Origin: Psammoneis japonica
Taxonomy: Eukaryota
Direction of reading: 5' to 3'
Assembly: GCA_008632985.1 (NCBI GenBank)
Contig: QPGO01000154.1
Location: 1-64,000, forward strand
Length of the DNA stretch: 64,000 nt
In this document: positions 1 to 47,095 of the stretch, piece by piece
Numbering within the stretch: position 1 is the stretch's first letter
Layout of the letters: every line of letters begins with the position of its first letter
Program-made: the position numbers and the translations under genes
The notes under the pieces: model-generated
Database searches by the model: none
Told to the model about the DNA's origin: nothing
Seen by the model: the letters and a program-made list of their open reading frames with translations, nothing else

Positions 1-59
1 GACTGTGTGTCAATCGGAAATTGGGCAGAATTTTAGACACGCAACATCACGATGACAAC

Positions 60-4228: not shown

Positions 4229-4229
4229 T

Positions 4230-5400: not shown

Positions 5401-5439
5401 TTTTGAAAGTTGCCACTTGCTGATTTAAATGCTTGCACA

Positions 5440-27180: not shown

Positions 27181-27699
27181 CTGATGAATTGTTTCATGCT
27201 GACATGATTGCCCACCCATCTCCACAGTGTTGTGCACACAATTTTTTTTCTTCCGCCTTGAATGGAGGCCAATTGTGCCTGCCAGCATGCCAATGGCCTG
27301 TCTTTTTTTCTGCTCCTCCTCTTTGAATGCCAAAATTTTCAAATGGGTCAGTTCACAACATCAGCTCATGCATTGTGGCATTTCGTTTGAATGGCGGTTT
27401 TTGCCATTTGCAGGCTCACATTGCATGCACACTGTTGCACATTGCACGCTAAGAACAATGACACTGCCACTTTTTGCATGCCAAAATTTTCAAATGGAGT
27501 GCCAATTTTTGTTGCTTTGCTCATGGTTTGCTTTCCATTCCCCTGTGCTCTCATCCGTTGCTTGTCATCCAGTCTTGGACCTCTGACCCATCATCCTTGC
27601 TTGTCTTGGCCCATTGTTCCTTGAATCTTGGAACAAGTGTTCCAGGGAAGTGTCCAACCCCCCGTGATGTCCCTCCATGGCCGCATGGACACCAGCACA

Positions 27700-30600
27700 G
27701 TGTGCCCTCAGTCCAATGAGTTTCTTTCATTTGCAAAACACCAGGTCTCCGCTGACTGTCGGAGGCCACCAATCAGTTGCTGGCAAGGGTTCCAATCCCC
27801 TGTCATGCATTTGCAGATGAGCTGCATTCAATGAAGTTTGGCCATCCTCAATGTCAATTGGTTCCCATTGACGTGGTGGCAGAGCACACATGATTTTTGG
27901 GAATCTGCAAGTGTTGTCTCCATGCTTGCATGCTGCCACAATGGCGGGAGGCAGATGACTCTGCTGGCACATGTGCTTTGCCACTTTCCTGTGGCTGAAA
28001 CTGAGAGGCAAAGTTGCTTTGTCCAATTGCTCTTCACAATGGACCCTGCTCCACCCCACAAACTCTTCCAAAATGTTGGGCATCCTCCATCTGTCAAAGT
28101 CCTGTCTGTTGAAGTCCAGCCATCCTGCAACAATGTGACAATTGACATCTCAACAGCTGCAGTGCAGCCTGCTTTCGTCCAGCTCATGGTGTAAATTCCA
28201 TGGGTGGAAATCTGCAATGGCACTGCACAATCACCCCACGAGCGCAGCCATCCTGTGTTTCTGCATTGAAGCAAACCTTGGATCACCCATGTCACTCCAT
28301 CTCTCCTTGCATGCATCGTCAGCCACACTTGTCTCTCGCAAAGCACGTGTTGTATGTTGCTGCATCTGTTTGTTCACTGTGTCCATTTTCAACAGGTTTT
28401 TCACATCAAATGTGAAAAGACAAAGTCCACAATGCTCTCTGTTGATGCCAGGTTACCCAGCTCATCCATTTGCAGGCAATGACAACAAAACCCCGGCAAC
28501 CACGCATGGTTTTTTTCCCTGTTGCTGTTCTTCATCAACTTGCTCATGATTTGTCAGATGCATTCTCTCTTGCCATCCATTTCACAGTGTCCTGGATTTT
28601 GCCTTTGTTGCAAAAAGATGAAAAGGGGGCATCAGTCATGACTTTCACCAACACTCAAAATTTTTGTTTCCGGGCAGTTGACACATCCTTTGCCACAACA
28701 TGAAATTTTAGTTTGGGGCAGTTGTCTCATCATCAGCCCAATGAAACTGTGCTGTTTCCTCAAACACCTTGATTGCAGCATCTTGTTGGTCCATCTTTTG
28801 TTGTGTGCAATGAAATGCTTTCACTTCTGCACATTTCTGTGCCCTCCATCATTTGAAGAGCAACCAAAATTTTGATTGCTGTTCTTCATTGCTTGTTTGA
28901 TTTTTGCTGATTTGTGACAGAATTCCACGGCACTGTCCCACAACTTGGCAACCCATCCTTTTGTGATCATTCTTCACACACAAATGAATTTTTTGTTGCT
29001 TGCTTTCTAGTCCCAGGTGCTCACAGTCACACACGACACCACATCACAATGTTGCAGCAACAACACAACAAGTTCATTGCCACACCTCCTTGCTGGGTCT
29101 CACCTTCTTCATGCTGGAACACATGTGTCCAACTGCCATGTTGCTGATGTTTTCTGCTTGCTGCTCAATGTCTCATCTCCCTCCCCTTCCCATTGGACTG
29201 GATTGGGAAAACAACAAAAGCTCTCGTCAATGCACACATTTCCAACCTGGTCGCATGTCAGCAAGAGGAGGAACTTGCTTTGCAAAAGTGTCTCTTCTGT
29301 TGGATTGTCCCCCACTGGCATGCTGCATCTCTTCCAACAACTTGACATGGATGGATTTCTCAGCCACTTCCACCGGCCAAGCTCTGGCAATGTGGCTGAG
29401 AATGCCCCATCAGCATTCCTGCACTTTCCACAATCAATGTCTGTCATTTGCACCATTGCAGCAGGTGGCAGAAGAATTGTCTTTGCAAGTGGCTAAATGC
29501 AGAGAGGCAAGTGCCAGGAGATCCACTCCATGTTGCAAAAGAAAGCATGACTGCAGCCCCAGCTGCTCAGGAAAAGTGTTCATCTGCCAAAGAGATGAAT
29601 TGTTTGTTCATTTGGTGGTTCTTGTGTGGAGGGACTTTTGATCAAATCACCAAACAAGATGTCATCAGAGTTTTGCTCCCATCTCCCATTTGGATTGTTT
29701 TGGGAAAGGAAGCAAAGAAGTCTCGTGCCTCACCATTTTGCAGTGCTGCTGACAAGGACAAACAAAGCACACATGGCAATGAAGGTGACACCATCAATGA
29801 CGCCTTCCCAGAGAAGACCCGCCATTTCGAGAGCAAAGGTTCCATCAGAGATGATGCCAATGAACAAATGACAGAAGAAGCAGGAAACAACTGTTGCAAC
29901 AAACCCCTCTTTGCCAATCAAGCTGAGTTGGACAACCATGATTTGTGTCAATTTGAAAATCAACAGGACTTTGCCATTCTCCTGCCAAGGGCCCAGAATG
30001 CTTTGCTGGAGAAGCAGCTGATGTTGCCAACAATGTGTTGGTCATTGGCATGGCATTTGATGATGAGACTGCCAACAAAGGCAACCAGGATTGTTGGGAC
30101 ACCGCACATTGTAAAGTGCCAGTCAAGGCCAGTTTCAATGTTCACACCATTGACTGTCAAACAACAAAAACTCCTGATCCAAACCACATGGAGGCCAATG
30201 TGCAGGCTCTTCATCCGTCTTCAATGGACATTGTCCACATGCCAAATGGACACCTCAACAGCTGGGTGTTGACAATTTTTCTTTCTTCAGTCAATCCTTG
30301 ACCCATTTTTGCCTGAAGCTGCTGGACGTTGGCAATGTCCACCTGCTGACAAACTTGCAGGTCACCAAGGGATTGTCTGACAACTGGCAACTGGCAGGTG
30401 GTGGGTGAGGTCTAGATTGTCAGGTGCCTTCACCAAGACCAATGAGAGGAGATGCCTCTCTTCCATCCAAAAGCGGTGCTGCCGCTGGAATGTTGTGGCA
30501 AGGCAGGAGACATGTTTCACCAGAGGAAAAGTTTTGGAGTTGCATTGTTGGAGGTCAGCTCACATTGGCACACATGTTGCTCATGCGATTGTCATCCGCT

Positions 30601-30700
30601 GACTCCAACTGCTCATCTCCCATTTGTTTCCAGACAAAGGGGGGTTGTGAGCAATGACCAACATGAGCCAGTTGCAAGGTTTGCATGTGATGTTCATGTG
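27700..30700 (-). mobile_element. Degenerate DIRS/Ngaro-like retroelement module (RT, RNase H, tyrosine recombinase)
   Basis: cat gtg gac aat (HVDN, 30241-30230) reverts to YVDD by undoing one TA->CA and one CG->CA change. The homologous block-1 copy shows RNase H-like 'KMDNVAAWSG' and YR-like 'FSSNSWWRCGA...RCWK'. Confidence 0.5.
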
Positions 30701-30729
30701 AATGTCTAGAAAGCTGTGCTGTCTGTCCC

Positions 30730-33170
30730 ATGTCCAGTCTTGTTGACACTGATCCAATCCTAGATGAAACCTTGGAGGCAACAGATGCCATCTGTGGCCA
30801 TTTCTGTTGTAAAACCAAGTGCACAAAAGGGGGAAAGAGCAAAGCAGATCTGCTTGAGGAGAAAAATTTCAAATGTTGGGTTGACAAGTGTCAACCATTG
30901 GACTCTCCCAATGGAAAGACAACAACACTGGGGAACTGTGTCTTTGATCCCAACAGATGTTGACAAATCACAAGCACAGTTGTTCTGGAATTTGATCTGA
31001 TGAATTTGAACAAGATTAAAAAGTGCTGGAGCAACCAGTTGTTGTTTGTTGAGAAAAAAAAGGGGCCAAATCAGTGCAGCTCCTTGACACCAACTGGCAT
31101 GCAGTGACCAGAACAGAATTGGCAACAAAACTGGTGGAGGACCTGGGTGGCAACCTTGGCATCCTGTCAAATTGCCGCAATCATCCATGTTCAGGATTGC
31201 GTCCAAGGGATCCCACTGTTGTCAACAAAAACAACATTTTGGGCATTGACACTGACCATGATCATGGCAGATGCTTGTTTCAAATGCTGAAGCTGTCAAA
31301 GCAGATTGCTGGAAGAGACCTTCTGTCACAAACCTCCAGCACAATTGAGGGTGGTTTGTAAAATGGTCTTGGAGATGAGTTTGTCACCCTGTCCAAAGCA
31401 CACAAACAAAGGAAGTTCTGCTCCATGGCTCTGGAATTAATGCAGCTGGGGGGAAGTTGAGCAGGAGCGGTGGTCGTGGAGTTGCCATGCCTGGCTGTCT
31501 CCCAGGATTGCCCAACCAAGCCTCTCCACACTTGCAGCAGTGGACACTGCAACTCTTGTGATGGTCATTCATGGTGTTTGCCAAAGAATGCTGGATGGAA
31601 CAGCACAATCACAGCAGGGAGCAACCAATGCAATGAGACGCAAGGTCACTGAGAAAAATAAAAAATGGCCCAGCTGCCCAGATGCTCTGTGGGCTGCTCT
31701 GAGGGAGTTCAGTGCTCACACCAGCTCCACAGGTGCTGCAACTTTTCATTTGGACACGAGCAATGGAAAGGAAAAGCATCATGATCACATCACTCCAGCT
31801 TTGTTTCAGGTGGAAGACTGGACCATGTGTCTTTCAGAAGAGAGCACCACAAAGCCAATCAAGAATTTGGTGCCAGTCACAAACAGCCACTTCACCCACT
31901 TGGCACAAACACAGCAGTGGATTGTCAACAGCCAGTTGAACAAGCTGGAATTAAATGTTGACTGCCCTTGCACAGAGTTGCTCATGACCATCTTGAAGGA
32001 GCACTTGGAGATGATTGATCTGTGCACACTGAGCAGCAAGGAGGAAATTTTCAACACCATGGAAAGAATGCCATCCATGGAGGACACAAGCACAACAACA
32101 GATTGCAGTGAGGGCAGGTGCATCATGATGAAAGAGGGTAAAACTTGATTGATTGTGATGGGGTGCATGGCATGGCTGTGGCTCCTCTTTTGCAACACCT
32201 GTGAAGGATGGGTCCATCTGCAACACGTGACAGAGTGCAAAGCATTTGTGTCAATGGGGCTCAATGGCACTCTGCTGCTCATGAGGACAATGCTAACTGC
32301 AATCTCCTTGCCCACAAAGGCAAGTGTCATCTTGGATTTGCAGAGGCGAGCCACACAAGAAGTGCCTTCTGCAAATGGTCAAAGATGCCAAATGTGGGGG
32401 AGATCCCAGCAAAGTTCACAGTTCTCCCATCCCATGTGGCAGAACTGCAACAAAAGCCTGCACAATGGCAAACCCAAGACAAAGGACTGCCCACATCATT
32501 TTGGTTTGTTTGTTGGAAGAGCAAGACTGAGTCCTGCAAAACCCGAATTCAACAGAGCAAGAGAAGGACACAGCTCATAGATTGACAATCAACCCAAACA
32601 AGCAAAAGGCAATGAATCAGCTGGAAGCAACTGGGAGATCAGCTCCGCTGGGCAGCGTGAGAGGCACTGTGCATGCACAGATGGTTACCTTGGTGATTGT
32701 CAGGCAGAGAACACAGCCTGTGCTGTTCCAAATGAAGATGAAAAGAATGGTTTCTGTTGCCACCTGGTTGACACCACAGCATCCAACAGTTCTGATGCAT
32801 CTGGCAGCAGGATTGACACATCCAATGCTCCAAAAATCTGTTAAGATGTGTGGGGAGTGATCATGCATGCCAACAAAATGTTGGTGTCCACAGCCTGCAT
32901 GGACCAACTGTCTTGCTGCCTGCATCATTTGAAGAATCATGGTCTGAAGGAGGACTCAATTTTTTTGCATGATGACAGCACAGTCTTCTTGCCCATGAGA
33001 CACAAGGAAGTGTGCACTGCCGCGGCAAGGACACACAGTTTCAAACACAGGACAGAGTTCTTCTCAGTTGACAAATGGTGTGGGCTGGAGGAATTTGTTG
33101 CAAAATGCAACAACACAATGGACCCAGACAGTGTTTGGTCACACTCAAAATTTGGAAAGATCATGTGAGG
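30730..33170 (+). mobile_element. Degenerate opposite-strand coding remnant, possibly MULE/SWIM-type transposase
   Basis: Longer protein-like fragments on + (30730-30963, 31074-31361, 31540-32148) and a Cys cluster 'CNTCEGW...ECKAF'. Family assignment is weak. Confidence 0.25.
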
Positions 33171-33199
33171 GGACAAGCAATGTTTTAAACAATTTGTCA

Positions 33200-36100
33200 C
33201 TCTTTGCACACACTCCTGCCCCCAGAGCACAAATCGCCATCTAAAAAGAGTTCCAGCCACTCTTCCTTCATGTCCACGACAAACAATGTCTTTTTGTCCA
33301 ACAACTCGCGATCCAACACAGTGCCTGACAAAGACAAATTGGCAGCTTCTTGACTGTCCCCTGAATTTTGTTTCTGAGCTTTCTTTCCTTTCTTGCATTT
33401 TTTTCCTTTCTTTCCATTGTCCGTCAGCACCATCTTTGGCAAGACCACACTGAACCCACCTCCCACAAGCGTGTTTTTCTGAGAACCGCAAAAGGTGCAC
33501 TTGGGTGTCATGCCCTCCATGTGCCTTTTCCTCCTCACTTTGGGTTGAGCATGTTCTTCCAAATGCAACAACCTCCTGTCTGTTGTCACTTTTAAAACAC
33601 ACCCATGCAGTGGCATTGGGATTTAGGTGTCTGTCCCATGATTGTCGTTTCTGTGTACAACCTGAGCAAAGTCATGCCATCTCCCAGCCTTGCAACAATT
33701 CAGATGGGCAGCATGGAATTGCAAGTTGTGTTCCACCTTTAGATTCAACTCAGAGTGCACCACAACGTGCCTCTGCATTACACTCAACTTCTGTTGTCTG
33801 CACAAAAACTCATCAACATCCTCCTCCAAGTGAGTGCTTCTGTCTCTTTTCAACTCTGTCACTGGTGCATTGCAGTGGACATTCAAGGTGGTTGAGCACA
33901 AACAGTGCATGAACCAAGTCATTGTGTGATTTTAAACTTGGTTGCAAATGATTGGATTTGCCACTGTTGTGGCCAATCAAATTGTTTGCTTGCTCCAACA
34001 GAGTCTGCTTGCACAGTTGGCTTGCAAGCTGATGAGTGAACTCCTCTTTGCCAGACTGCCAGTGGTGGCATCCCATCCAGAGAAGATGCCCAGGCAATGA
34101 AGAGCAGCAATCAAGTGCAGCAGATCATGACTGATCTGGCTCTGCAGCTTGAACATTAGAAGAACAAGGTGGCATTTGAGATTGACTTGATTGGTGTGTG
34201 TGTGTGTGTGCAAAGAAAACCACAGTTGCAAAAGGAGTGGAACAATGACAATTTGTTGAGCAACAGAAACAGGTGTTCCACATCATCACAGTGCACCAAA
34301 CAACTGGTGGGCTGGAGATCCATGCTGTTCAATCAATTGTGGAATGGAGGAGGCAAGTCTTTTTCAATTCCAGAGCAAAGAAACCATTGGTTGTGGTCAG
34401 TTGACTGTGTGTGAAGGGTCGGACATTGGTCTGTGCAGTGTCTTGCGCTTTCATTGACAGAAGAGTCATTTTTGTCAGGAGTGAAGAGTTGTTGGTCAAG
34501 ATTGACATTTCTTGTTTGCATCACATAATGTTGTGGCACAACTGGGCTTGAGTGGTGGTCATCTGCAAAATGTGAGGACACCTGCAAAATGTGAAGACAC
34601 ATGTGCAACAGGCCATGATGACAACATTGATTTTCCAGGAAATCATTGTGAGTGGGGTCAGTGGGATTGCATTCTTTGTTTGCATGGGGCTTGTTCACAG
34701 CTGCAGCAGCTCCATCTGTGGAGGCCACCAAGGGAGATTCTTCATTGGTGCAGTGCTCTTTGTTGTCCTCCTCAGGAGTTTGTTGGCATTTGTTGGATTC
34801 ACAGGCAGACTCGTCATCCTCCAATGCAGCCTCATTGGGATTGTTGGCTTCTTGTTCCACTTCTTTGCATGTGCAACCATCGTCTTTGTCTTTGCAATTG
34901 CGGTCATCTTCTGGAGGACCTTCATTGAACTGGGAGGCTTGCTTTTTCTTTGTCTTGTCAAAATCAGGATGACATCAAAGATGGAGATGCTGCACCCCTC
35001 CTTGGTCTGACCCATCAGTGCAAGTGCAAAAAGCTTGCCCATCTTTTGGTCACAGGTCAAACCAGACAAGGTGCAAAAACCACTGCACAGGCCAGGACAA
35101 CCAGTGGAAAGTTTGATCTCTGTGCAGGCCTGCACCACTGAGATCCAAATGTGCGGTTGGCCAAATTGTTTGGTCGCCTTTGGCAGAGTCAGGCAAATCA
35201 TTGACTGTCGATGGAAAGCATTTGAGGGACTGTGCCACCTTGGAATGTGTGCATTGGGTGGGGGAGGCAAAACCAAACACCCCCTGATGGTTGTCTCCCA
35301 CGTGCAGAGGAAAGAAATTGTTGACGGTGTGTTGACAGAACACCTCATGTGGTGTGGTGGTGCAAATGTTTGTGCACCAAACAACAGCACTGCATGCCAT
35401 CAAACACATTGATTTGGCTTTCAACTTCAACATCACAATGTGAATTGTTGACTTGATGCACAAATGCCACAGACTGTTGGTGGAACCCAGTGGTTTTCCA
35501 AGAGTGGCTGCCGTTAGATGACCCATCACTTCCTGAGAAAAATGCTTGCAACAGTGCAGCAGTTCATTGCTGCATGTCCAGGATGCATGGCAAGCATGAC
35601 TGATGCAACAGGTGTTTTTGCAACCTGAAACATGGCCGGTGACTTTTGCTGCATCACACCGGCATTGCCCATCAAAGTGATGCTGTGAACAATTGTGCAC
35701 TTGAAACAGCACTGAGCTCCCAGTCAGACAAGGCATGTTGGCAATTCTTGCACTGCAATTGCAAATGCGAGAATGATGGATGCAGTGCAGTGACAGTTTC
35801 TGACATTTGTCAAGCATTCACGCCAAAAACTTGCCAAAAACAGCATTCTCAGTTTTGCAGCCAGTGAATTTTGGGATGAAGCCTGGAGGGTGCCATGCTT
35901 CAAAATGCCTGTGTGCACCTGCCTTGATGAGAGTCCACAGAGAAAAGAAATGGCTCCATCAAATGGGGTGCAACCTGTCTTTCCTGGTTTTGTTGGTGTG
36001 ACACACAACAAAGACAGGAAAGGATCCAGGGAGAGTGGGACCACAGAATCCACACAAACAGTTGCTGCAAGTTTCTCCATCCTTCATCATTTCTGCATCA

Positions 36101-37140
36101 TCACAAAGTTGCCAGTCTTCATTCTTGCCCAGCGTGGGTTCACGGGAAAGGACCTGAGACCAGCATGACACGGGAGGAATGTCAAGATTGGAAAGGTCTG
36201 GAAAAAGAGGATCATCAAACAAGTCCTGCAGCTGAAGAGAAAGGTTGCACACAGGATTCTGGGAGACAGCTTTGCAGTTTGTTGTTTTTGAATTGGTTGA
36301 CAATGGACACAGACTCAAGGGGACTCTCTTCAACACCAGAGTGATGATGCTGGGCAACATTGACTCAAGCTTTGAGATGAAAATTCAAGAAGAGGGGACT
36401 TGGTGGTTGGCAAACAACCCGCCACTCAAGAACTCCTCTTGTGCTGTTCCAAGAATTTGTCAGTTGCGCTGATTGGGACACCCTTGGAGCAACACAGACT
36501 CAACATGTGAGCCACAGAGATGATCTTGCTGTTGTGTGCTTTGGGAACAACAAGATCCTTGTTGGTGGAAAGGTGCTCAACTTGATCCAGCGCAGCAAAA
36601 GAACCTGATTTGACAACAGTGGCAGCACCCTGGTTGACAGAAGGAGATGCAGCACCATCAAACAAATCAGAAACAAAATCTTTGTTGTGAGGGTGCTGGC
36701 ATTCTGAAACATCATTGGTGGCTGGCACAACGGCAGTGGTGTGAGAAGATCATGGCTCTTGCACTGGGGTGCCTGCATGAGTGGATCTTAGATGTGAGGA
36801 TTGTGTTGTGCATGAACTTTTGGAGTGGACCCCATGTTGGAGTGAGACCCCACTGCAACAAATTAGATGGGGAGGGGGGGGAAGGTGGAAGAGGGAGTTT
36901 CATTGCCCAGTTCTTTGGATTCTCCCATTGGCGGAAGTTCACATGATTGTCCTTGTGAATGCTCTGCAAAAAGGAGTTCTGAGGTGATGCAGAAGACCAG
37001 TTGGAAGGAAACATTTGCCACACACGGACAATCATTTGCCACAGCAAAGGAAGGCACCAAACTGGCTGGTCACAACAACAGAAATTTTGTCATGCAAGCA
37101 CGCATCTTGGATTTGTGTGCAACCAGACGTTGCCCATTGT
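33200..37140 (-). mobile_element. Degenerate Plavaka-like DNA transposase
   Basis: Ordered remnants LQDLFDDPLF..LSNLDI (~36200), GDNHQGVFG...PMHTFQGG (~35270), WKI..HGLLH (~34620) and FHAAHLNCCKAGRWHDFAQV (~33690), resembling the recalled 'HPNY...WYDW' motif. Confidence 0.55.
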
Positions 37141-37501
37141 GAAAAATGATTCTCTTCCTTTCTTGGAGGTGAGGGCTGCACTTGTCACAAGATTCTCCAA
37201 GCTGGTGCATGTTGACACTTCTTGTGGCCACACCTTGTTGTCAAGAGTCTTTGAGTTCTCATCATCTGCCACTTCTGCAGTTTCAGCAGAAGCAGCAAAA
37301 GCAGCACATGGCTCCAAACCGCATCTTTTGGCAATGTGCTCCAAACTCAAATGTCTCAAAATGTTCTTGAAGTGTTGATGTGTGACAAGGATTCCTGAAA
37401 ACTGTTGAGCAACTCAACCAAGTCATGAGCCGGGTTGCAAGAAGAAATCTGACAGTCTTGGTTTGCACACCATCAACACAGAAAAAATCAGACATCTCAA
37501 G

Positions 37502-38192
37502 CCATGCTGCTGTGAAAAAAAGCACAGGATTGCCAGCAACCAGTGGAAAATGTTGATTTGCTGCACATTTGTCAGACAAGCAAGTCATCAAAAGTTTGTT
37601 GCAGAAGATGGAAAGAGACCACATGTGCTCAAGCCTCCAATCATTGTGAAAATTCAGGAGCTCATCTCCAGCATGTTCAGAGTCCAGAAGAAAACATGCC
37701 CTTCCACACTTGTCCATGCCAGCATGAGTGAGCCAAGAAGAGAGCTTGCACTCTGTGGTTGCAAGTCCTTGCTGGAAATGCAATGGTGCAAGACCTCCAG
37801 GCCATCATTTGAATGAACAGAATCAAGAGCAACCTGCTCAATGCCAAAGATGGCGTGAATCTGGCAGTCAGAGAATTTTTTTACCCAGGCGCTGCATTCT
37901 GAAAGGCAAAAAAACACTCAATGCAAGCCAGCCCCAGCTCTTGAGGATGGCAAGACCACCATGATCCCAGAGGAGCTCATCACAGCTCCACATCAAGTCA
38001 CACTTTGTTTGGAAAGTCTGGAGGTGAGCAGCTTGCCACTCATCACCACCACGACCTCCTGCAATCTCTCCACTGCTGTGCTGCACATGACATCTCAAAG
38101 ATTTGACTCCAGACACTCACAAGGAAGCTCCAGAGAAGGAGCGTGGCACATCTGCAACCAGGGCAATTCCAAGAAGTTTCCACAGCAGGTTT
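37502..38192 (+). repeat. Left arm of a ~0.68 kb inverted repeat (partner 42870-43547)
   Basis: Long identical stretches with the reverse complement of 42870-43547, e.g. both translate to VLKPPIIVKIQELISSMFRVQKKTCPSTLVHASMSEPRR. Confidence 0.92.
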
Positions 38193-38452
38193 GGATCAGG
38201 TGACGTGAGATAGATGCGATGCCGCTTAGATTCAGATTCAAAGCCCAAGGCATTTTTGCTACATCGTTTTCACTGTGTGACTCATCTTTGCTGCCGCACG
38301 AGCTGGGCAACAATGAATGCATCACGTTCCAATGCAGGTCCGATCAAGCGTCGCTCCTCACAAAAGAAAAGATTCCAAATCTATCTCGTGGGAGAGCGAT
38401 CTTGTGCGAAAGCGCGTGGACTTTGGCGCAAGAAAAATCGACGTGTGCTTGT

Positions 38453-40847
38453 CTAACACAAAGACGTTCGAATTCCCTTCGAAAGAATCTTCACTGCAGC
38501 AGGAGGGACAAAGCCGTCGGCAATGGAAATGCGCCCAGCCTCAATCTCAGAGTGCAGTTTGACAATGTTGGACTCAATGGAATTGTTGAACACAAACCTC
38601 TTCACTTGCACCGCTTTCGTTTGTCCAAGGCGGTGGATGCGACCTGCCGCCTGGACTTCCGCAGCGGGGTCGATGCACGGCTCGAGAAGACACACAATCG
38701 ATGCCGCAGTCAACGTGACCAGACGGCAGAACAAATGTGTGAGGTCAGGGTCGACATGGCAAAAGACAAGTCTCGAGCGAAGACACCACTACTTACTTCC
38801 AACGTTGCCAGCCTTCAGCGTAATGACGAAGACTGCTGGTGTAGAATCACTTTCATCTTGGAACTTCCGGATTGCCTTGTCTCGGGCAGGGCCACTTGTA
38901 GATCCGGTAAACTGGCACACATCCAGACCTTGGTTCTTGAGTGCTTCGATCACTGCCGAGTGCTGCCGAGTGTACTGCGTAAACACAACAGCACGGAGCT
39001 TGGGTTGAGAACGGCGCACAAGCTGCAGATCGTTCAGAAGAGCCTTGGTCTTGGTGACGGCGTGGCCAGCGAACGTCATGCGAAACAGAAAGCACTGCTC
39101 AAGAGTAAATATTTTGGATCCTTCTAGTTCGTAACCACGAATGATATCCGCGTGCTTGTTGGCTTTTCCAAGCATGTCCCGTTCGAGCGGTGACATGTCC
39201 ACGCACAAGGTGGTCGAGGTGGACGCAGGGAGAACCAAAGCCTCGGATTCTCGGATGCGTTGCTTTTTCGTGTGATGAATCATGACACGCTTCAACTGTT
39301 CAACAAGAGCGTCGAATCTCTCCTTCCCATTGGGTAAGGCCGATTCAAAATCCCGAATCAACCTCAAAAGCACCTCATCGTAGCTTCCGGAAAAGAGGAG
39401 CTGAGATGCAATCTCGCGAATGGAGGAAGTGAACGGAGTCGCTGTCACACACCACCTGATTTCTGAACAAATCTTTCCGGCCTCATGCTGCTTTGCTGAC
39501 GATCTGTTTGTTTCAAATAAATGGCTCTTGTCGGCAACAACCCGGTGGAACTCGAAGTTGTCGGTGATGCTTGGTTTCCATGTAAAGGTGGAAGTGGAAA
39601 TGATGACATCTAAATCAACAAGCTGGCGTGGATCGAATTTCTCTGGTTTCCGTGGCACCTCGCAGCACGGAGATTAGGAGCATGCTTCTTGCATTCGTTG
39701 AGCCACTGGCCAACCAGCGAAACGGATGTTAACACCACAGCAGTCTTTGCTGGAACCCTCTCCCACGTCCTGATCATTTCCCTCCATTCCCTCCATTTCT
39801 TTTTGTCATAGTCTGGGTCTCCACCATCGCGAAAATGACTCAATCGAGAGAGCTCCTTGGACTTGTGGTCAAGTCGACGAGGTGGCTTCTCCCAGTCTTG
39901 CAGTTTCTCTTCAACTGGGGACAAAGTCGGCAGTCTTTTCAGTGCCATGGGATTGGAGGCAACAAGAGCAAGAACAACGGCGGACTTGCCCATTCCAACC
40001 TCATCGCACAGGAACCCCCCCTTGGCCTTGCCGCCGGCAGAGATCTCGCGATCTTCCACGTCCAGCATGAATGCCAGGCTCTGACGTTGGCAGTGGCGAA
40101 GGCTCGTGGAAAAGAGGTTCGCAGGAGGAACCTTTTCAACAGGGCATGCCTGAGTCACGGCATCCAGCAACTTACGAATCGAGAAGTCACCTGCAACGGT
40201 GCAGTTGACGGTCCTGGCACAGCAGCCTCAGCTTGCTGTGGGGGCACCAGCATTTCTCCTCGTTTCTTCACGCTTGCGTCTCCACTGATCATCACTGTAC
40301 TTGGCATGGCAGTGCTCCTTCCATGAGGCACAAGTAGAGGCCAAAATGTCACACACGTAGCAAAAACAGTTTGCGCAGTGCTTTGAGGGATCGACGTTGT
40401 GAGGGTGGCAATGCAGTTCTCACGCGAGTGGGGAAAGTCAACAAGAGCAAAATGACCTGTCGTTCCAACCACAGCGACCTCTTCATCGTCCTTCTTCTCC
40501 TCGTTGTCAGTGGAGAACAACTGGGCCGTGGCAGACTTGACTCGAGAAGCAGAGACCTCACGAACATCGTCGTTGTTGTTTCCAGACGAAACTTCTTCTG
40601 TGTCTTCTTCGCTCGTCGAAGCACTCATGGTCGACAATGGAGGATTGGCACTCGCCACTGCTTGTTCTCCGGGTGTCGTGACTGGAAGCATCACCTCCTC
40701 TCTGTCAGGACAACCCACCGATGCGCTGCCAAGTGAGTTCTCGGTCTTGATTCGCTTTGAAGTCACTTTCAGTGTCGCCGCGGCTGGCCTCTTTCCGTCT
40801 GCGTCATCGTCATCTGAAGACACCAGATCAATCACGTTCGTCGACAT
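38453..40847 (-). pseudogene. SNF2/RAD5-like helicase with N-terminal Cys/His zinc-binding domain, disabled
   Basis: Motifs GGFLCDEVGMGKS, VVADKSH, RWCVTATP, VVFTQY and QAAGRIHRLGQ; N-terminal FPHSRENC...HCANCFCYVCD...W..HC. In-frame TGA at 40230-40228, frameshifts at ~40405 and ~39640, and a broken splice acceptor at 38721-38719. Confidence 0.85.
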
Positions 40848-40990
40848 AGTCCACTGCATGGATGTGGCTGTGAGATTTCGAGCACAGTGCGCATTCAATG
40901 ATGAGAAGCAACGAAACTTGGAGCCGTCAGCCTCATCGACATCGTGAACTGCCGAGACGCCGCATCCCGCATCAGCATGGCATGCCGGTG

Positions 40991-41243
40991 TTCATCGTGA
41001 GACCCCACAAATGCGGAGGGACCCTCCTGCAGAGCTCTGTGCAAATTTTTGTATGTGGCACTGAAACATGTAGCCTGCATGCGCAAAACTGGTGCAGTTT
41101 CTACGACAAAAATCCGAAAAAACGCCCAGTTTGCGAGATGGCTCTGGTGCAAAACCCACGTGAACAGTCCCCATACATTCACGTAGAACTCCACACATTT
41201 CCGGGTTGCAGGTCCCTCCGCATTTGTGGGGTCCCACGATGAA
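40991..41243. mobile_element. MITE-like element, 253 bp, 33-bp terminal inverted repeats
   Basis: ttcatcgtgagaccccacaaatgcggagggacc (40991-41023) vs reverse complement of 41211-41243, 1 mismatch. Flanked by TG on both sides. Confidence 0.75.
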
Positions 41244-41399
41244 TGCATGGCATGCTCAATCTTTTTTTGGCGCGCACCCGCGCCCTCTCCATCGTTTCGA
41301 GAACGGCCCATTTGGACAGAGAGACCTGTTCAGCAAAGCCAGAAAAAGAAAAGTGAAAGCTGGCATTTTCCGGTCCAGCCAGCATCTAAGAAAAAGGAG

Positions 41400-44130
41400 C
41401 AATGCCGAGAACAGCTTTTTGGACACATGAGCAACACCAATGACAAAACAACTGGGTTGCTTGAAAAGGTTGCCAGCGACAGATCATTCTTTCCCCCCTT
41501 TTTTTTTTGTCAAAAGCAAGTCATGTGAACAGGCTGTTGGCTGAGCACCTTCAAAAGTGCAAGGTCTCTTGATGCTTTAGCAAGACACAGCTTTCCTCAC
41601 TCTGGGGCCCTGCATGCACCTGACAGCTGCATGCAAACACCCTGCAGCACACGCCACACAGCAAATCAGCACAGGAGGGTTTCATTTTAGAGACAAGATC
41701 CTGAGAGGAAACCATTGTTCTCACACTTCTTTCAGAAACAAGCCTGGGAGCATGCTGTGCATGTGGAGAGCAACATTTTCAAACCTTTGCAATGGCAGGC
41801 CACCAGCACATGGCACAATCTCAGGGGCACCAACAATGTGGGTCCATCCACCTGCCACAAGCTGGAAATTTTATGACTGCAGTGCTAGATGAGCATTGCT
41901 TGGCAAGTTGGGTGATCACTTTCATTTCAGTTCAGACCAACTCTTGTGGGCCAATTGAAGTCAAATTGTGCCCTCTTTTGTTGCAGGGTGTTCTTGCCTC
42001 TGATCCCAGAGTCAATGCCTTTTTTTTTTTGTGTTTTGTTGTTTCTTCAGCAGCCATCATTGTTGTTGTTTGTGGTTGTCGAACATGCAGAGCACCAAAA
42101 GCTGAGGCAGCAATTTGAGAGGTGAGATCTGTTCCCCTTGTGAACAAGAACAGACATGTGGAAAGCACCATGGGTTCTTGGCTGTTGTTTGAAGCAATGT
42201 GGTGGGTGCTTCTCACCATTTCAATGGAGTGTCAGTGTCAGTGCTCAACTGTGCCAACCATGTGGCACAGTGTTGCACCAAGAATGTCACAACCAACTGT
42301 GCCATGCTGCAAGAGAAAATGGCCCAAGTGCAAAAAAAAAAGGGGTGGCTGGGAGCCACCACCCACAAAACTGGAGCTGGTGCACATGCTGCTTGGGCTG
42401 TTGTTCCTTGCCATGTCATCACTGTTGAGCCCAGTGTGGAGGAACAGGGCCTGTGGCAGTGACAAAAGAGGAGCACATGGTGCCTTGGCTTTGACGCCAC
42501 TCTGTCACCTCTGTGCTCCCAAAAGCTGTCCTCCAACCAGGAAAGTTTTGACTGACCCAGTCAGAAGATTGCACTCAGATGACACACAGAGATGGGACAT
42601 GCAACAGTTTCAAACAACATTGACGTGGTGTCTGCTGCTGTTGCAATTGCTGCTGAGTTTCCTTGCATGCAGAGCATTGCTGGTGAGCACCCAAGCCACT
42701 GGTTTTGACAAGTGCTCCTGGAGTGGGAGCTGATGGCAAGGATTGGTGCAAGCACGCTCTTTTCTTTTTTCAACTTTGATGTTTCTTTCAGCTTTTCTGG
42801 CACATGCTCTTGAGCATTGGAGCAGCTCATCTTGGCATTGTGGCAGGCCTCAAAACTCACTGTCACTTTAAATCTGCTGTGGAAACTTCTTGGAATTGCC
42901 CTGGTTGCAGATGTGCCATGCTTGTGAGTGTCTGGAGTCAAATCTTTGAGATGTCATGTGCAGCCCAGCAGTGGAGAGATTGCAGGAGGTTGTGGTGGAA
43001 ATGAGTGGCAAGCTGCTCTCCTCCAGACTTTCCAAACAAAGTGTGACTTGATGTGGAGCTGTGGTGAGCTCCTCTGGGATCTTGGTGGTTCTTGCCATCG
43101 TGTCCTCAAGAGCTGGGGCTTGCATCAAGTGGTTTTTTGCCTTTCAGACTGCCTGCACCTGGTTAAAAACTTTCTCTGATTGCCAGATTCACACCATCTT
43201 TGGCATTGAGCAGGTTGCTCTTGGTTCTGTTCATTCAAATGACAGCCTGGAGGTCTTGCACCATTGCATCTCTAGCAAGGACTTGAGCGCAGAGTGCAAG
43301 GCTCTTCTTGGCTCACTCATGCTGGCATGGACAAGTGTGGAAGGGCATGTTTTCTTCTGGACTCTGAACATGCTGGAGATGAGCTCCTGAATTTTCACAA
43401 TGATTGGAGGCTTGAGCACATGATGTGGTCTCTTTCCATCTCTTCTGCAACAAACTTTTGATGACTTGCTTGTCTGGCAAATGTGCAGCAAAATCATCAT
43501 CCTTCTGCTGGTTGCTGGCAATGTGCTTTTTCTTCACAGCAGCATGGAAAAATCTTGACCATGAGATCACATGTTGTCAGCTGGCTGTAGGTGGCACTTG
43601 TGTGCGGGCTCCTGATGGAGCTAAGACCTGAGTGAGGTGGACACTGTTTCCAAAAAGTTTGGCACCAAGTGTGCTCAAGTGTTCCCCACTTTTGTTGTCA
43701 AAGGCATGTTCCTCCTGCACAAGAGAGCCCAGCAAGGCATTCAGTGAGGTGTTGCTTTTCTGTCAGCGAGTGCAAGTGATCCAAGCAAGTCAGGTTGGAA
43801 GGAGCTGGTGAAGCAGACACATTTTCTAAAGGCAACCCAGCACATCACCATTGCTCTGCTGGCTAGAGAGCATGTTGTCATTGAGCAGCATGTGGGTGCT
43901 GCCTTCAAGTTCACACAAATTGCAAAAGCCATGCTGGTGCAGTGACAACACTTGGAAAGGGTGTCATTGCACCCACCAGTGCCTTCAAGCAGCAGAAGCT
44001 CAACCCAAGAGCTCTGCCAAAACAGAGATCATCACAGAATGTGCTCTGTGATTAGCTTCAAAGTTTGTGGGCCACCAGGAGGCACATTTGTTGTGAAGTG
44101 CAAGGAGGATGATGCTTCTACTGCCAGTGG
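41400..44130. other. CpG- and TpA-depleted block (block 3)
   Basis: Same signature. TA and CG resume at about 44130-44200. Confidence 0.88.
42870..43547 (-). repeat. Right arm of the inverted repeat (partner 37502-38192)
   Basis: See left arm. Confidence 0.92.
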
Positions 44131-44371
44131 CAGATAACAGCATCATAGTCACAAGAACCGTGTGGCATGTTTTGGCCGCTGAAAGACTATAGCGAACAAT
44201 CTACAAGTAGAGGCGGAGTTATAGGGAGTCGGAGACAAGTACGAAGTAGAAGTGACGCCATTGTTGCGCAAAAAGGCGAACACGAATCAATTCCTTGTTG
44301 ACTCTCTAGCAAACAAATGGTGTTGCACGCATTATGTTCATTTTCCTTTATACTTTCGTACGAGTACTGCT

Positions 44372-45820: not shown

Positions 45821-47095
45821 ATGTCGGACGGTGACACATCGAGTGATAATGATGATGACATCGGGGGACTCCCAGAGATGGACGGTTCCTCTTCGGACGA
45901 GGACGTTTTTGCTTTTCAGAAGCGTAAATTCCAGAAGCGAAAGACTGATTACTCCGATGAATCCTCTTGCAGCGACGACAGTGAGTACGACGACGATGAA
46001 GCGACGAAGCCATCTAGTTCAAAACGTCAAATCAAGAAAAAGAAAGGCTCTCCATCTGTAGAGGAGCGACTATCAGCAATGCGAAGACGAAAAAGTCCAA
46101 AGCTACCTACAGATGATTCTGACGATTCTGACACGGAGAACGACGCAGACGTTCCCAAAGCCCCAAGGCCGTCCGTCGTTGAACTTTTGTCATCGGATGA
46201 CGATGATGACGACGTGGTTGTTGTGCAAAGTCAACAATCGAGATATTCCTCTGCAAATCCGGAGCAATTAACCCTTATTGAACAAGCACGAAGTGCTGCA
46301 AGAGGTTTGAGACAAGCCCAGAATTATCATGCGGAAGACGTTCGAGTCACCGTAGAACAACCTCCGAATCAGCCTACAAACCCAATGATTGCTACCCTTG
46401 GATACCAGACATTGGGCGCTACAGGCTATGCAAGAAAGATTTCGCCCATGATGAGCAACGAAGTTGACCTTACGTCCGATGTTCCTCAGAACGGCTTGAA
46501 TCTAGCTCAGGCGAATTTGGGAAAATCAATGAAGCTTTCGTTGAGAGCTGAAGAGTACGTAAATGGCAAGCTGCAGTCATCGTCGTATTCAAACGGAGAG
46601 CACAATTTCTTTTCCATCATGGAGCGAGAACCACTCCGTAATCTCGTTGAAAAGTACGTCACGTCAAGGGAACTGCCGTTGGATTCAACCACTGTTGTGC
46701 TTTCGTTTCGTGGGGACCAAGTGGACTTGAACATGACACCGTCAATCTGCGAGATGCAAGATGGCGATGTAATAGATGCGGTGGCGAAAACCATCGTGGT
46801 CCCGACCAAGTCGTCCAAGAAAGTCGCCAAGTCAGCGGCAAACTTGGGGGAAGAGATTATGCTCACGCTGCGAGTGCAAGAGATGAAGGAAGGTAAAAGG
46901 GTTCCTGTGGATGAGGTCCTGAAGATTCGGATGCTGGAAAAATTCTCGGTCCTGATGGAAAAATTCAAGAAGAAGAGGAATACAAACTCTTCCAACATTA
47001 CAATGTCGTTTGACGGGCTAACGCTTGATATGAACAAGACGCCAACGGATTATGAAGTAGAGGACGAAGATTTGATTGACGTATTGGTAAAATGA
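45821..47095 (+). CDS. Rad60/Esc2/NIP45-like protein with two SUMO-like domains
   Basis: Acidic N-terminus, SIM-like VVELLSSDDD, and C-terminal repeats LSFRGDQVDLNMTP...MQDGDVID and MSFDGLTLDMNKTP...VEDEDLIDV. Confidence 0.85.
   Translation: MSDGDTSSDNDDDIGGLPEMDGSSSDEDVFAFQKRKFQKRKTDYSDESSCSDDSEYDDDEATKPSSSKRQIKKKKGSPSVEERLSAMRRRKSPKLPTDDSDDSDTENDADVPKAPRPSVVELLSSDDDDDDVVVVQSQQSRYSSANPEQLTLIEQARSAARGLRQAQNYHAEDVRVTVEQPPNQPTNPMIATLGYQTLGATGYARKISPMMSNEVDLTSDVPQNGLNLAQANLGKSMKLSLRAEEYVNGKLQSSSYSNGEHNFFSIMEREPLRNLVEKYVTSRELPLDSTTVVLSFRGDQVDLNMTPSICEMQDGDVIDAVAKTIVVPTKSSKKVAKSAANLGEEIMLTLRVQEMKEGKRVPVDEVLKIRMLEKFSVLMEKFKKKRNTNSSNITMSFDGLTLDMNKTPTDYEVEDEDLIDVLVK

Follow-up and report, generated by a model that had tools for sequence, protein, structure and literature searches.

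Loss of TpA is uncoupled from loss of CpG and extends beyond it at an SNF2-family helicase locus of Psammoneis japonica

Introduction

The stretch between positions 40381 and 40980 of the window analysed here (positions 1 to 64,000 of contig QPGO01000154.1 of Psammoneis japonica, 64 kb in length) raises the question of why DNA should have lost nearly all of its TA dinucleotides and kept its CG dinucleotides. With a recognisable gene in which TA is nearly gone and CpG is kept, adjoined by DNA without both, the locus represents a natural experiment on the relation between the two losses. The original prediction for it had been that TA loss is uncoupled from CG loss and extends beyond it, and that the responsible process is mechanistically separate from CpG decay and either faster or spreading further.

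Results

The 600 bp from 40381 to 40980 (GC 0.537; no strand assigned) contain a single TA, with 32.0 expected from base composition (observed/expected ratio, o/e, 0.03), and 44 CG (o/e 1.02), so that an earlier hand count of 1 TA and about 44 CG proved to be exact on recount. CA (o/e 1.42) and TG (o/e 1.25) are both elevated. The stretch covers the 5′ coding part of an SNF2 gene together with about 120 bp of its upstream flank. Its sole TA, at 40847–40848, is the minus-strand T|A junction that immediately precedes an ATG (Met, 40847–40845), four codons ahead of the start of homology at 40835. The same TA-poor sequence is present in contigs of the DNA run X1, which is possibly the window's own source sample.

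As a reference for intact genes, 15 intact ORFs within the 64-kb window were used, which carry 2.5–3.7 TA and 4.6–7.3 CG per 100 bp. Their TA o/e of 0.42–0.63 indicates that coding DNA is generally TA-poor. Nevertheless, the 152 segments of 600 bp inside these ORFs contain at least 10 TA (median 19), the 40 among them with a GC of at least 0.52 contain at least 13, and the minimum among 639 such segments in two normal blocks is 5. That intact genes keep many TA could be confirmed for 45821–47095, which has 38 TA (o/e 0.44) and 83 CG (o/e 1.18). The scarcity at 40381–40980 hence falls outside what intact genes of comparable GC show (1 TA against a minimum of 13). A codon-aware null model, in which synonymous codons were resampled 5000 times on the region's own, already mutated protein with the codon usage of the 15 intact ORFs, gave 17.5 ± 3.4 TA for the 489 coding bp at 40410–40898 (minimum 7 in 5000 draws) versus 1 observed, and 33.2 ± 4.4 CG versus 34 observed. 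About 94% of the expected TA is missing there, and CG is at expectation. The TA loss is real and mutational.

The original prediction had treated the stretch as part of a diffuse edge or gradient. This does not hold, as it is actually the 5′ part of a discrete gene unit of 3.1 kb (38200–41310, no strand assigned) with sharp CpG borders on both sides. The CG change points lie at 38200 (support 38130–38210) and 41310 (support 41300–41480), and inspection by eye revealed no evident target-site duplication or inverted repeats, the mark of a young insertion, at these two positions. The unit is depleted of TA (36; o/e 0.20) and retains its CpG (192 CG; o/e 0.90), so that methylation-type CpG depletion is absent from the flagged stretch as well as from the unit as a whole. 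Its CA (o/e 1.36) and TG (o/e 1.29) compare with about 1.1 in normal blocks, and its GC of 0.52–0.54 with 0.44–0.53 in the surroundings. TA depletion reaches the non-coding flanks of the unit, and at 38210 TA climbs merely from 0.14 to 1.16 per 100 bp, the normal value being about 4. Within the unit the loss is patchy (6 TA in 1242 bp versus 25 TA in 1600 bp). It is weakest directly beside the adjoining 13.7-kb block, where TA occurs at 38211, 38227 and 38260, which argues against a simple spread from the nearest repeat. Of the two edge zones that had been described as rich in CG and poor in TA, 38200–38700 fits this description (5 TA, o/e 0.16; 35 CG, o/e 1.09), whereas 9650–10400 is poor in TA (2 TA, o/e 0.04) but also about half-depleted of CG (23 CG, o/e 0.51).

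The gene within the unit is located on the minus strand at 38453–40859 and comprises an acidic/Ser-rich N-terminus, a Cys/His-rich stretch, an SNF2-related domain and a Helicase_C domain. On two minus-strand ORFs, Pfam matches to SNF2-rel_dom (PF00176; E-values of 1e-10 and 2e-9) and Helicase_C (PF00271; 3e-5) were both above the cut-offs. A BLASTP search among proteins of 516–2000 aa yielded 17 relatives at 34–44% identity, two of which are named as proteins of diatoms; PF27679 is a domain precomputed for these relatives. In tblastn, all six relatives tried align colinearly from 40835 to 38462 over three frames, with a best identity among the six of 46% in the C-terminal segment, and the gene's stop codon is a TAG at 38455–38453. 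These data identify the gene as an SNF2-family helicase gene; it is probably a pseudogene, as discussed below. No second copy was found by tblastn in the 64-kb window, and the BLASTP search revealed no close paralogue among proteins of 516–2000 aa, with nothing above 44% identity. A metagenome scan yielded two loci only, at 38–39% identity, and no close orthologue. Neither the gene nor the MITE-like element described below has a look-alike in the survey's sequence index.

Over the entire helicase gene, TA amounts to 1.07 and CG to 5.99 per 100 bp. About 65–70% of its TA has been lost, and its 147 CG compare with a codon-aware expectation of about 150 (three segments summed). Codon usage has shifted in the direction predicted by TA>TG: the ratio of GTA to GTG is 0:24 versus 62:75 in the 15 intact ORFs, and that of CTA to CTG is 1:17 versus 37:78. 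ATA accounts for 1 of 815 codons (36 of 5392 in the intact ORFs), Tyr for 6 of 815 (128 of 5392) and Cys for 27 of 815 (90 of 5392). Residual TA by codon class (7, 6 and 13, with about 19, 25 and 35 expected from intact-ORF densities) implies that Tyr codons have been eroded as strongly as synonymous TA. Among four conserved Tyr columns, one is still Tyr and two have become Cys, with the motif LRHYQ now reading LRHCQ. A consensus-polarised codon test on 330 conserved columns found 77 mismatches (5 TA-type, 8 CG-type, 7 other AT>GC, 8 other GC>AT, 21 transversions and 28 multi-step); none of these classes is above dinucleotide-context chance, and relatives at about 40% identity leave this test without power.

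A putative intron of 78 nt (38719–38796, minus strand) has the donor GTAAGT, and its 3′ end reads ..tctGG in place of an AG acceptor. Read through, this insert brings an in-frame TAG, whereas excision of exactly these 78 nt restores an Ile codon and the relatives' motif GNVG-I-TLTAAS. From about 38773 up to the next exon, no alternative AG is present. An X1 contig is identical to the window over 38636–39014, and one relative (L001) lacks an intron at this site. It appears likely that the acceptor was formerly TAG and has become TGG through TpA>TpG. An in-frame TGA at 40228–40230 (minus strand) is of uncertain status, as it lies in an unconserved linker and possibly inside a possible 57-nt intron.

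Two frameshifts of the minus-strand gene had also been considered. The first, at 40408–40409, has one base fewer than the relatives; the X1 contig has one additional base behind 40408 (all of the depth there, 94.7), which restores the frame, so that this frameshift is either specific to the window's version or an assembly error. The second, at 39637–39638, is a run of A3 in the window and of A4 in the other version, the additional base behind 39637 (depth 79.3 of 79.3) again restoring the frame. As X1 contigs have an additional base at both sites, the frameshifts were dropped as proof of a dead gene. No intact spliceable frame with intact catalytic motifs was found, given the TAG in the acceptor-less insert, the TGA and the replaced Tyr of LRHYQ, the frameshifts belonging to the window's version only. 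The gene is probably dead, judging from its sequence; since both frameshifts are missing from X1 and may be assembly errors, the case is mainly built on the likely loss of the acceptor and on Tyr>Cys.

Three blocks of the window, none of them assigned to a strand, are nearly free of both TA and CG. The large block (24480–38200) has a TA o/e of 0.05, a CG o/e of 0.17, a CA o/e of 1.84 and a TG o/e of 1.80, and its first 1.45 kb (24480–25930) form a margin with 6 TA (o/e 0.06) and 35 CG (o/e 0.42). For the second block (41310–44050) the respective values are 0.07, 0.06, 1.98 and 1.72. The third (1–10780) likewise has a margin, 8500–10780, with 13 TA (o/e 0.08) and 50 CG (o/e 0.42). In all three deep blocks the feature of CpG decay is present (CG o/e 0.06–0.20). 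Normal blocks have a TA o/e of 0.53–0.64, and the TA change points at 10780, 24480 and 44050 are sharp (support intervals of 120–180 bp), with normal DNA alongside. At the far border of the second block both dinucleotides are back within 100 bp (TA at 44050, CG at 44150), beside the 3′ end of an intact hydrolase gene. No Pfam family was found above threshold in ORFs of at least 130 aa from the TA-poor blocks (101 ORFs scanned window-wide); two sub-threshold matches in such ORFs of the large block are at chance level. The margin ORF at 9789–10379 (minus strand) has no relatives among proteins of 108–345 aa.

Divided into 128 bins of 500 bp, the window contains 65 normal bins, 53 without both dinucleotides, 10 that are TA-poor with normal CG and none that is CG-poor with normal TA. 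A CG o/e of 0.3–0.6 occurs only where the TA o/e is 0.23 or less, which results in an L-shaped path in TA/CG space. Of the five block borders, four show uncoupled or offset changes in TA and CG, and at one (about 44050–44150) the two coincide. CG-poor DNA is nested inside TA-poor DNA. The first claim of the original prediction, that TA loss is uncoupled from CG loss and more extensive, is thereby borne out.

A MITE-like insertion of 269 bp occupies 40977–41245 (no strand assigned) and lies upstream of the first ATG of the gene, at a distance of about 120 bp. It has 33-nt TIRs (40991–41023 and 41211–41243; 97% complementary) and is flanked by an 11-bp direct repeat (40975–85 and 41245–55). The insertion is missing from the other version of the locus, in which the X1 contig joins 40976 to 41246, and it is a high-copy element, with an X1 depth of 2007 in the bin 41010–41343 versus about 50–60 over single-copy genes. 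The depths of X1 contigs are sums that cannot rank regions, and no copy number of the gene unit was taken from them. The MITE keeps 13 CG (o/e 0.73) and 5 TA, all of the latter in contexts that have been erased elsewhere. The 1242 bp around it, with 6 TA kept, are the most erased patch, and as a polymorphic element inside this patch still has 5 TA, the TA process looks episodic. The CG o/e of 0.73 in this young element also argues that CpG poverty is not simply imported by insertions.

A second version of the locus, differing from the window at TA and CG sites, exists in run X1, which may be the window's own source sample; the event counts given here are a sample, drawn from 40 of 239 differences. 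Of the 19 events considered within 38200–41310, seven are CpG transitions (five with TG/CA in the window versus CG in the read, two reverse), three have TA in the window versus CA in the read, two are CA-versus-TG doublets, one is a CpG transversion and six are others. Among the differences considered, at least 21 fall in the 3.1-kb unit versus 5 in 1833 bp of neighbouring genes. CpG transitions amount to about 1.8% per CpG base versus about 0.23% for other bases (about 8-fold), and in the read's lineage 3 of 36 TA and 3 of 192 CG were lost, a comparison of rates that rests on few events, as these stem from 40 of the 239 differences. That the two versions differ at CpG sites suggests that CpG decay is acting in the unit, slowly.

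Discussion

The TA loss at this locus runs in the direction A:T>G:C, the CG loss of the neighbouring blocks in the direction G:C>A:T. As these are opposite chemical directions, two separate processes have to be assumed, in line with the original prediction of a mechanistically separate TpA process. The TA process neither depends on CpG decay nor travels with it, is able to hit DNA outside of repeats, and probably kills genes. With regard to the alternative of a faster or a further spreading process, we favour the former: about 94% of TA is gone where CG is still at expectation, and the two versions of the locus indicate a slow change at CpG. A simple spread is contradicted by the TA loss being weakest next to the 13.7-kb block.

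Rather probably, a fast, TpA-specific A:T>G:C hypermutation and a slower, separate CpG decay have both acted on this DNA. The first process would convert TA to TG or CA on both strands, in sharp-edged and nearly complete patches of about 1–2 kb, also outside of repeats. Its chemistry would be either a deamination of adenine or a thymine modification that mispairs. The second would be ordinary CpG decay (CG to TG/CA), presumably through deamination of methylated cytosine, a role of methylation that we infer, and would be much slower per site. The first process would have passed through the helicase gene, on which the second would have been almost without effect so far, whereas the flanking, repeat-derived blocks would be old enough for both to have finished. 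TA loss would then appear early, and CpG loss late, in DNA that has been drawn into a silent domain, with silencing presumably preceding mutation. That the TpA process may be what strikes newly silenced DNA first, as the original prediction also had it, is plausible. The gene would have been killed along the way by conversion of Tyr codons to Cys and, likely, of a TAG acceptor to TGG.

Instead of two speeds, the pattern could reflect two different targets, with CpG decay bound to repeat-derived DNA and the TpA mutator acting across a broader chromatin domain, unique DNA between repeats included. The helicase gene would then never lose its CpG. Such a division is in agreement with the CpG steps at 38200 and 41310, which coincide exactly with the limits of the gene unit, and with the CG of the gene being at its codon-aware expectation; the overrun of RIP into adjacent single-copy genes reported in PMC3105345 would provide a precedent for a leaking mutator. 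However, the margins at 8500–10780 and 24480–25930 exhibit a graded, intermediate CpG loss that is not all-or-none, and the 7 CpG transitions among the 19 unit events, about 8-fold the level of other bases, suggest that CpG decay is ongoing in the unit. We therefore regard a difference in targets as rather unlikely.

As TA>CA and TA>TG are strand mirror images, the sequence cannot separate A>G from T>C. A modified thymine within TpA (e.g., 5-hydroxymethyluracil, 5hmU, set by a TET/JBP-type enzyme) that mispairs or is mis-repaired to give T>C would produce the same symmetry. According to the title of a 2024 PNAS paper (PMC11572971), 5-hydroxymethyluridine silences transposons in dinoflagellates. 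In this group 5hmU favours TpA. On the other hand, nothing was encountered that would indicate 5hmU in diatoms, and the authors of the work on Bigelowiella natans favour an ADAT2-like adenine deaminase (bioRxiv 10.64898/2026.01.13.699255). This chemistry appears unlikely; it bears solely on the mechanism and leaves the two-process picture intact.

It is very unlikely that the contrast originates from history before insertion, that is, from blocks that arrived CpG-poor, and perhaps TA-poor, after methylation and mutation over many rounds of transposition. The contrast between gene and block would then carry no information on kinetics in place. The deep blocks are indeed degraded beyond classification, their ORFs of 130 aa or more having given no Pfam family above threshold, yet the sole demonstrably young insertion, the MITE at 40977–41245, has kept its TA and a CG o/e of 0.73, and graded CpG margins beside unique DNA point to decay in place. 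An explanation without any mutator, in which a functional helicase gene avoids TA by codon usage or selection (e.g., against UA-rich mRNA), can practically be dismissed despite the general TA poverty of coding DNA, as none of the 152 intact-ORF segments and none of the 5000 draws comes near the single TA observed, the non-coding flanks are depleted as well, Tyr codons are eroded as much as synonymous TA, and an in-frame stop lies within an unspliceable 78-nt insert.

Two features of the borders are worth recording beside the time-lag reading. The sharp CpG borders at the limits of the gene unit fit a repeat-bound CpG loss as well as a time lag. The border at 44050/44150, without an offset between TA and CG, forms a further counterpoint to a time lag.

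Returning to the reading of a fast TpA hypermutation and a slow CpG decay, a wider and more tentative proposal is that both belong to a two-stage genome defence of diatoms, in which a burst-like TpA editor, guided by chromatin domains, is followed by slow CpG decay. Its first stage would turn TpA into TpG/CpA in sharp patches of 1–2 kb of chromosomal DNA and would strike anything in the domain, including unique host genes between repeats. Genes would be killed fast, through loss of Tyr codons, TAG splice acceptors and TA-rich promoter signals. The enzyme might be a DNA adenine deaminase of an uncharacterised type or a thymine modifier, common to stramenopiles and rhizarians. If such a defence exists, TA loss relative to CG loss would be a clock for the time since silencing; already the much faster rate per site of the TA process implies that the TA/CG state could date silenced DNA. 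The two versions of the locus, distinguished by the MITE as well as by differences at TA and CG sites, provide test objects. They make the guidance of the mutator, its timing relative to methylation and the identity of the enzyme accessible to direct tests.

Among known systems, decay of CpG by deamination of 5-methylcytosine is characteristic of methylated transposons. It explains why CG has given way to TG/CA in the three deep blocks, and it explains the graded margins; it cannot explain the TA loss, and it is not measurable in the flagged stretch, where the CG o/e is 1.02.

Enzymes are also known to hypermutate or edit unwanted nucleic acid: APOBEC3 converts C to U on retroviral DNA, and ADAR converts A to I on RNA. 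The process at this locus would share with them an enzyme-driven hypermutation within a short sequence context. Unlike it, APOBEC3 and ADAR act on single-stranded replication intermediates or RNA, in other contexts and with other base changes, and not on chromosomal domains.

RIP is a fungal process that requires duplicated DNA and a sexual cycle. The position of the helicase gene between two mutated blocks resembles RIP overrun, with one copy of the gene in the window. RIP of ascomycetes is reported to leak into neighbouring single-copy genes (PMC3105345), and it shares with the present process regional, near-saturating and dinucleotide-specific transitions that destroy repeats and overrun unique neighbours (PMC3105345, PMC2621366, PMC3017866). 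The direction is different, however, as RIP proceeds by C:G>T:A, mostly at CpA, makes TpA and lowers GC. Here TpA is nearly gone, CpA and TpG are increased, and GC is unchanged or slightly up.

The closest counterpart is a TpA-specific hypermutation in B. natans that strikes integrated DNA of giant viruses and virophages (Mettrop et al., bioRxiv 10.64898/2026.01.13.699255). This 2026 preprint on an unrelated alga is so far the only source for A:T>G:C hypermutation targeted at chromosomal DNA. In the full-text literature searched, outside subscription journals, TpA hypermutation was found neither described for diatoms nor related to CpG decay. The preprint does not contain the words "CpG", "diatom", "flanking", "boundar" or "spread" (bioRxiv 10.64898/2026.01.13.699255), so that the relation to CpG decay, the point of the present finding, is not treated in it. 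Its abstract cites editing-type deaminases as analogies (bioRxiv 10.64898/2026.01.13.699255).

In B. natans, mutations are reported solely at TpA, to TpG/CpA, with rates in the same region of 6.85e-7 for AT>GC versus 3.9e-9 for GC>AT; the measured rate is about 1000-fold above background, in some lines only. The affected region is single-copy and has a 27-fold higher SNP density, and a whole-genome scan also yielded TpA-depleted coding sequences of likely host origin (bioRxiv 10.64898/2026.01.13.699255). The present locus exhibits the same TpA to TpG/CpA signature (TA o/e 0.03, CA 1.42 and TG 1.25, the codon shifts, and 3 of the 19 events considered being TA versus CA) and the same regional confinement, with sharp TA change points. 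Both cases have in common that TpA is converted to TpG/CpA on both strands, regionally, and that single-copy DNA is struck. The B. natans rate was measured, whereas the rate here is deduced from sequence, and B. natans is a chlorarachniophyte, a lineage different from the present one. Unlike the viral targets described there, a host-type SNF2 helicase gene with diatom relatives has been struck here, together with unclassifiable repeat blocks, and the depletion, which in B. natans is partial (Rho 0.45 in the NCLDV region), is near total at this locus (o/e 0.03–0.07).

TA and CG content of the helicase gene

The 600 bp at 40381-40980 contain a single TA, where base composition predicts 32, and 44 CG (observed/expected, o/e, 1.02), so that the hand count of the original prediction (1 TA, about 44 CG) was exact. 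In this stretch CA is raised to an o/e of 1.42 and TG to 1.25. The scarcity of TA lies outside the range of intact genes. In 15 intact ORFs of the window, which carry 2.5-3.7 TA per 100 bp, no 600-bp window (n = 152) had fewer than 10 TA, the minimum being 13 in the 40 of these windows with a GC content of at least 0.52, and across the normal, gene-rich blocks every one of 639 windows held at least 5. The gene at 45821-47095, which had been named as an intact gene that keeps its TA, indeed holds 38 TA and 83 CG. As a codon-aware null, synonymous codons of the protein translated from the stretch were redrawn 5000 times according to the codon usage of the 15 ORFs. For 40410-40898 this null, which is somewhat too high for TA (about 3.6-4.4 per 100 bp back-translated vs. 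3.1-3.7 in real ORFs), yields 17.5 ± 3.4 TA (lowest draw 7) and 33.2 ± 4.4 CG, compared with 1 TA and 34 CG observed. The bias of the null is far smaller than the gap down to 0.2 TA per 100 bp in the stretch. About 94% of the TA is gone, a loss of CpG is not measurable and, by arithmetic from the codon-aware null, the loss per site is more than five-fold higher for TA than for CG even with both counts taken at their pessimistic limits. Two edge zones had also been described as TA-scarce and rich in CG. This applies to 38200-38700 (5 TA, o/e 0.16; 35 CG, 1.09), while at 9650-10400 TA is scarce (2 TA, 0.04) but CG is about half-depleted (23 CG, 0.51).

The stretch belongs to a gene with SNF2-related and Helicase_C domains (Pfam), found on two minus-strand ORFs. 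Its 17 relatives share 34-44% identity, with two being named as diatom proteins (Thalassiosira profunda and Cylindrotheca closterium). The six relatives that were aligned with the window are all colinear with it between 40835 and about 38462. The 600 bp comprise the acidic, serine-rich N-terminal part of the gene and about 120 bp upstream. Their sole TA (40847-40848) is the T|A junction before a minus-strand ATG, four codons ahead of the position where homology to the relatives begins. An A>G change there would convert ATG to GTG, and survival of this TA may be a trace of past start-codon selection or chance. Intron positions differ among the relatives. A distant one on a metagenome contig (L001) carries an intron-like, stop-containing insert (about 1790-1990) that separates FPH from SRENCV and has no counterpart in the window (about 40410-40440), and the window has a 78-nt insert at GNVG|I, where L001 reads on.

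A mosaic of two depletion patterns

Three blocks of the window (1 to about 10780, about 24480-38200 and 41310-44050) are depleted in both dinucleotides (TA o/e 0.05-0.07, CG 0.06-0.20) but enriched in CA and TG (1.7-2.0), at unchanged base composition. Two gene-rich blocks have a TA o/e of 0.53-0.64 and a CG o/e of about 0.97. The unit carrying the helicase gene (38200-41310) combines a TA o/e of 0.20 with a CG o/e of 0.90. Its CpG borders are sharp, at 38200 (support 38130-38210) and 41310 (support 41300-41480); with a block on either side, the unit forms a discrete island and not a diffuse edge. The depleted blocks are called repeat-derived here by analogy and from the high, variable depth of contigs from X1, a DNA sequencing run compared with the window; among the 101 ORFs scanned in the window, those of at least 130 aa in these blocks matched no Pfam family above threshold. 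One X1 contig lacks 18 bases at 38122, just inside the repeat block; the CpG border at 38200 is about 80 bp away.

Among 128 bins of 500 bp, 65 are normal, 53 lack both TA and CG, ten are TA-poor with CG retained and none is CG-poor with TA retained. In agreement with the original prediction, TA loss and CG loss are separate and not coupled. Of the ten, two (51001 and 58001) belong to normal blocks and have only a mild shortage of TA. Bin 51001-51500 has 5 TA (o/e 0.26), normal CG and a GC content of 0.58, lies in a strong G-over-C skew across 50-52 kb and its ORFs have no Pfam match; its TA scarcity may be compositional instead of mutator-made. At four of the five block borders TA and CG behave differently. 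At 10780 TA steps sharply and CG climbs gradually from about 8500; at 24480 TA steps, with CG falling stepwise as far as about 25930; TA remains low across 38200 and 41310, the two borders with a sharp step in CG; only at 44050/44150 do both step together. A CG o/e of 0.3-0.6 was confined to places where TA had already fallen to 0.23 or less. The TA-erased zone stops upstream of a mitochondrial-carrier gene, about 46 bp short of its ATG (24434-24480), leaving the gene's upstream region TA-free and its coding sequence untouched; this gene appears intact, with Pfam Mito_carr on three exon-like ORFs.

In the cores of the depleted blocks (1-8500, 26000-38190 and 41320-44040) 54 TA are left in 23,412 bp, in non-random contexts. 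CTAA/TTAG (0.26 of normal density), TTAA (0.25), CTAG (0.19) and GTAA/TTAC (0.10) are partly spared, and the remaining contexts are at 0-0.02. A pyrimidine after the TA, on either strand, seems to mark the preferred target. In the helicase gene, where erasure is partial, ATAN/NTAT contexts show the strongest depletion, a hint that contexts may be lost in a kinetic order.

Mutational origin of the TA loss

Several independent read-outs show that the TA loss in the helicase gene is mutational. GTA:GTG is 0:24 (62:75 in intact ORFs) and CTA:CTG 1:17 (37:78). Among its 815 codons there are one ATA, six Tyr and 27 Cys codons, compared with 36, 128 and 90 among 5392 in intact ORFs. Of four columns with conserved Tyr, one is still Tyr, two are Cys and one is Phe, the Cys cases including LRHYQ to LRHCQ and RVYLMEP to IVCLLEP. 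Residual TA in the three codon-position classes number 7, 6 and 13 (19, 25 and 35 expected), approximately the proportions of intact genes, and Tyr codons were thus not preferentially protected. A single-change reversion test over 330 conserved columns found 5 TA-type and 8 CG-type changes among 77 mismatches, not above the prediction from context frequency; as the relatives are only about 40% identical, this test was without power.

The gene also carries candidate inactivating lesions. At GNVG-I-TLTAAS, where the relatives are uninterrupted, the window carries an insert of 78 bases that opens with GTAAGT. As cutting exactly these bases restores the Ile codon, the insert looks like an intron, which L001 lacks at this site. 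It ends, however, in tctGG and not in AG, no alternative AG is available, and reading through leads to an in-frame TAG. The simplest account would be that the TpA process turned a TAG acceptor into TGG, a candidate splice-acceptor kill. An X1 contig identical to the window across 38636-39014 confirms both GG and TAG. An in-frame TGA lies in an unconserved linker. Two one-base frameshifts, without space for introns, are not relied on, as X1 contigs have one additional base at each site, making them specific for the window's version or assembly errors.

Probable timing of the two processes

X1 contains 61% of the sampled words from 38000-41500 and provides a second version of the locus, although as contigs, which drop variants, and maybe from the window's own sample. 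Among the differences listed, at least 21 single-base differences separate the versions in 38200-41310, compared with 5 in 1833 bp of neighboring genes. Counted as events, and with 40 of the 239 differences across the 10 kb listed, those of the gene unit comprise three TA of the window read as CA, two doublets (CA in the window, TG in X1), seven CpG transitions (CG lost in the window in five, in X1 in two), one CpG transversion and six others. The listed events correspond to about 4% of remaining TA bases, about 1.8% of CpG bases and about 0.23% of other bases, the latter being similar to neighboring genes. Adjacent CA/TG doublets occur at 39741-39742, 40329-40330 and 36663-36664; each points to a single ancestral TA or CG that was hit independently, on opposite strands, in the two versions.

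A MITE-like insertion of 269 bp (40977-41245), absent from the X1 version, ends in 33-nt inverted terminal repeats (97% complementary), is flanked on each side by an 11-bp direct repeat and is high-copy in X1 (bin depth 2007 vs. about 50-60 over neighboring genes). This young element still has 5 TA, in contexts erased elsewhere, within the most TA-erased patch; the surviving TA speak for episodes and against a constant rate, and the element probably arrived once the mutation episode was over. TA loss in the gene unit is patchy, with 6 TA in the 1242 bp of 39800-41310 outside the MITE and 25 in 38200-39799, and is weakest directly adjoining the large block; a simple decay with distance does therefore not explain it.

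Two processes most likely account for these patterns: a TpA-specific A:T>G:C hypermutation like that of Bigelowiella natans, where it was measured, which would be fast and burst-like, and ordinary CpG decay. Chemically, the TpA process could be deamination of adenine or a modification of thymine that mispairs, between which sequence cannot discriminate. The TpA process had been proposed to be either faster than CpG decay or to spread further. The first is very probably correct, with about 94% of TA lost and CG at expectation. That it spreads further, with CpG loss confined to repeats, fits the sharp CpG borders of the gene unit equally well, but is less favored, as CpG transitions are in excess among the differences between the versions, which suggests that the gene unit is subject to CpG decay and that time was so far too short. 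The TpA process may also be, as had been proposed, the first to strike newly silenced DNA.

Comparison with known systems

Full-text searches yielded no account of TpA hypermutation in diatoms, nor of how it relates to CpG decay. RIP is reported to leak into single-copy genes embedded in repeats (PMC3105345). The process here resembles such leakage but runs chemically opposite and is thus not RIP. In B. natans, according to a preprint (bioRxiv 10.64898/2026.01.13.699255), which does not use the words CpG, diatom, flanking, boundary or spread, all hypermutations are at TpA, occur in some lines only and reach 6.85e-7 per site in a single-copy region where G:C>A:T changes run at 3.9e-9. Unlike the foreign viral DNA described there, the target here is a host-type gene; at the level of sequence the depletion shares with B. 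natans hypermutation that it is restricted to TpA and regional.
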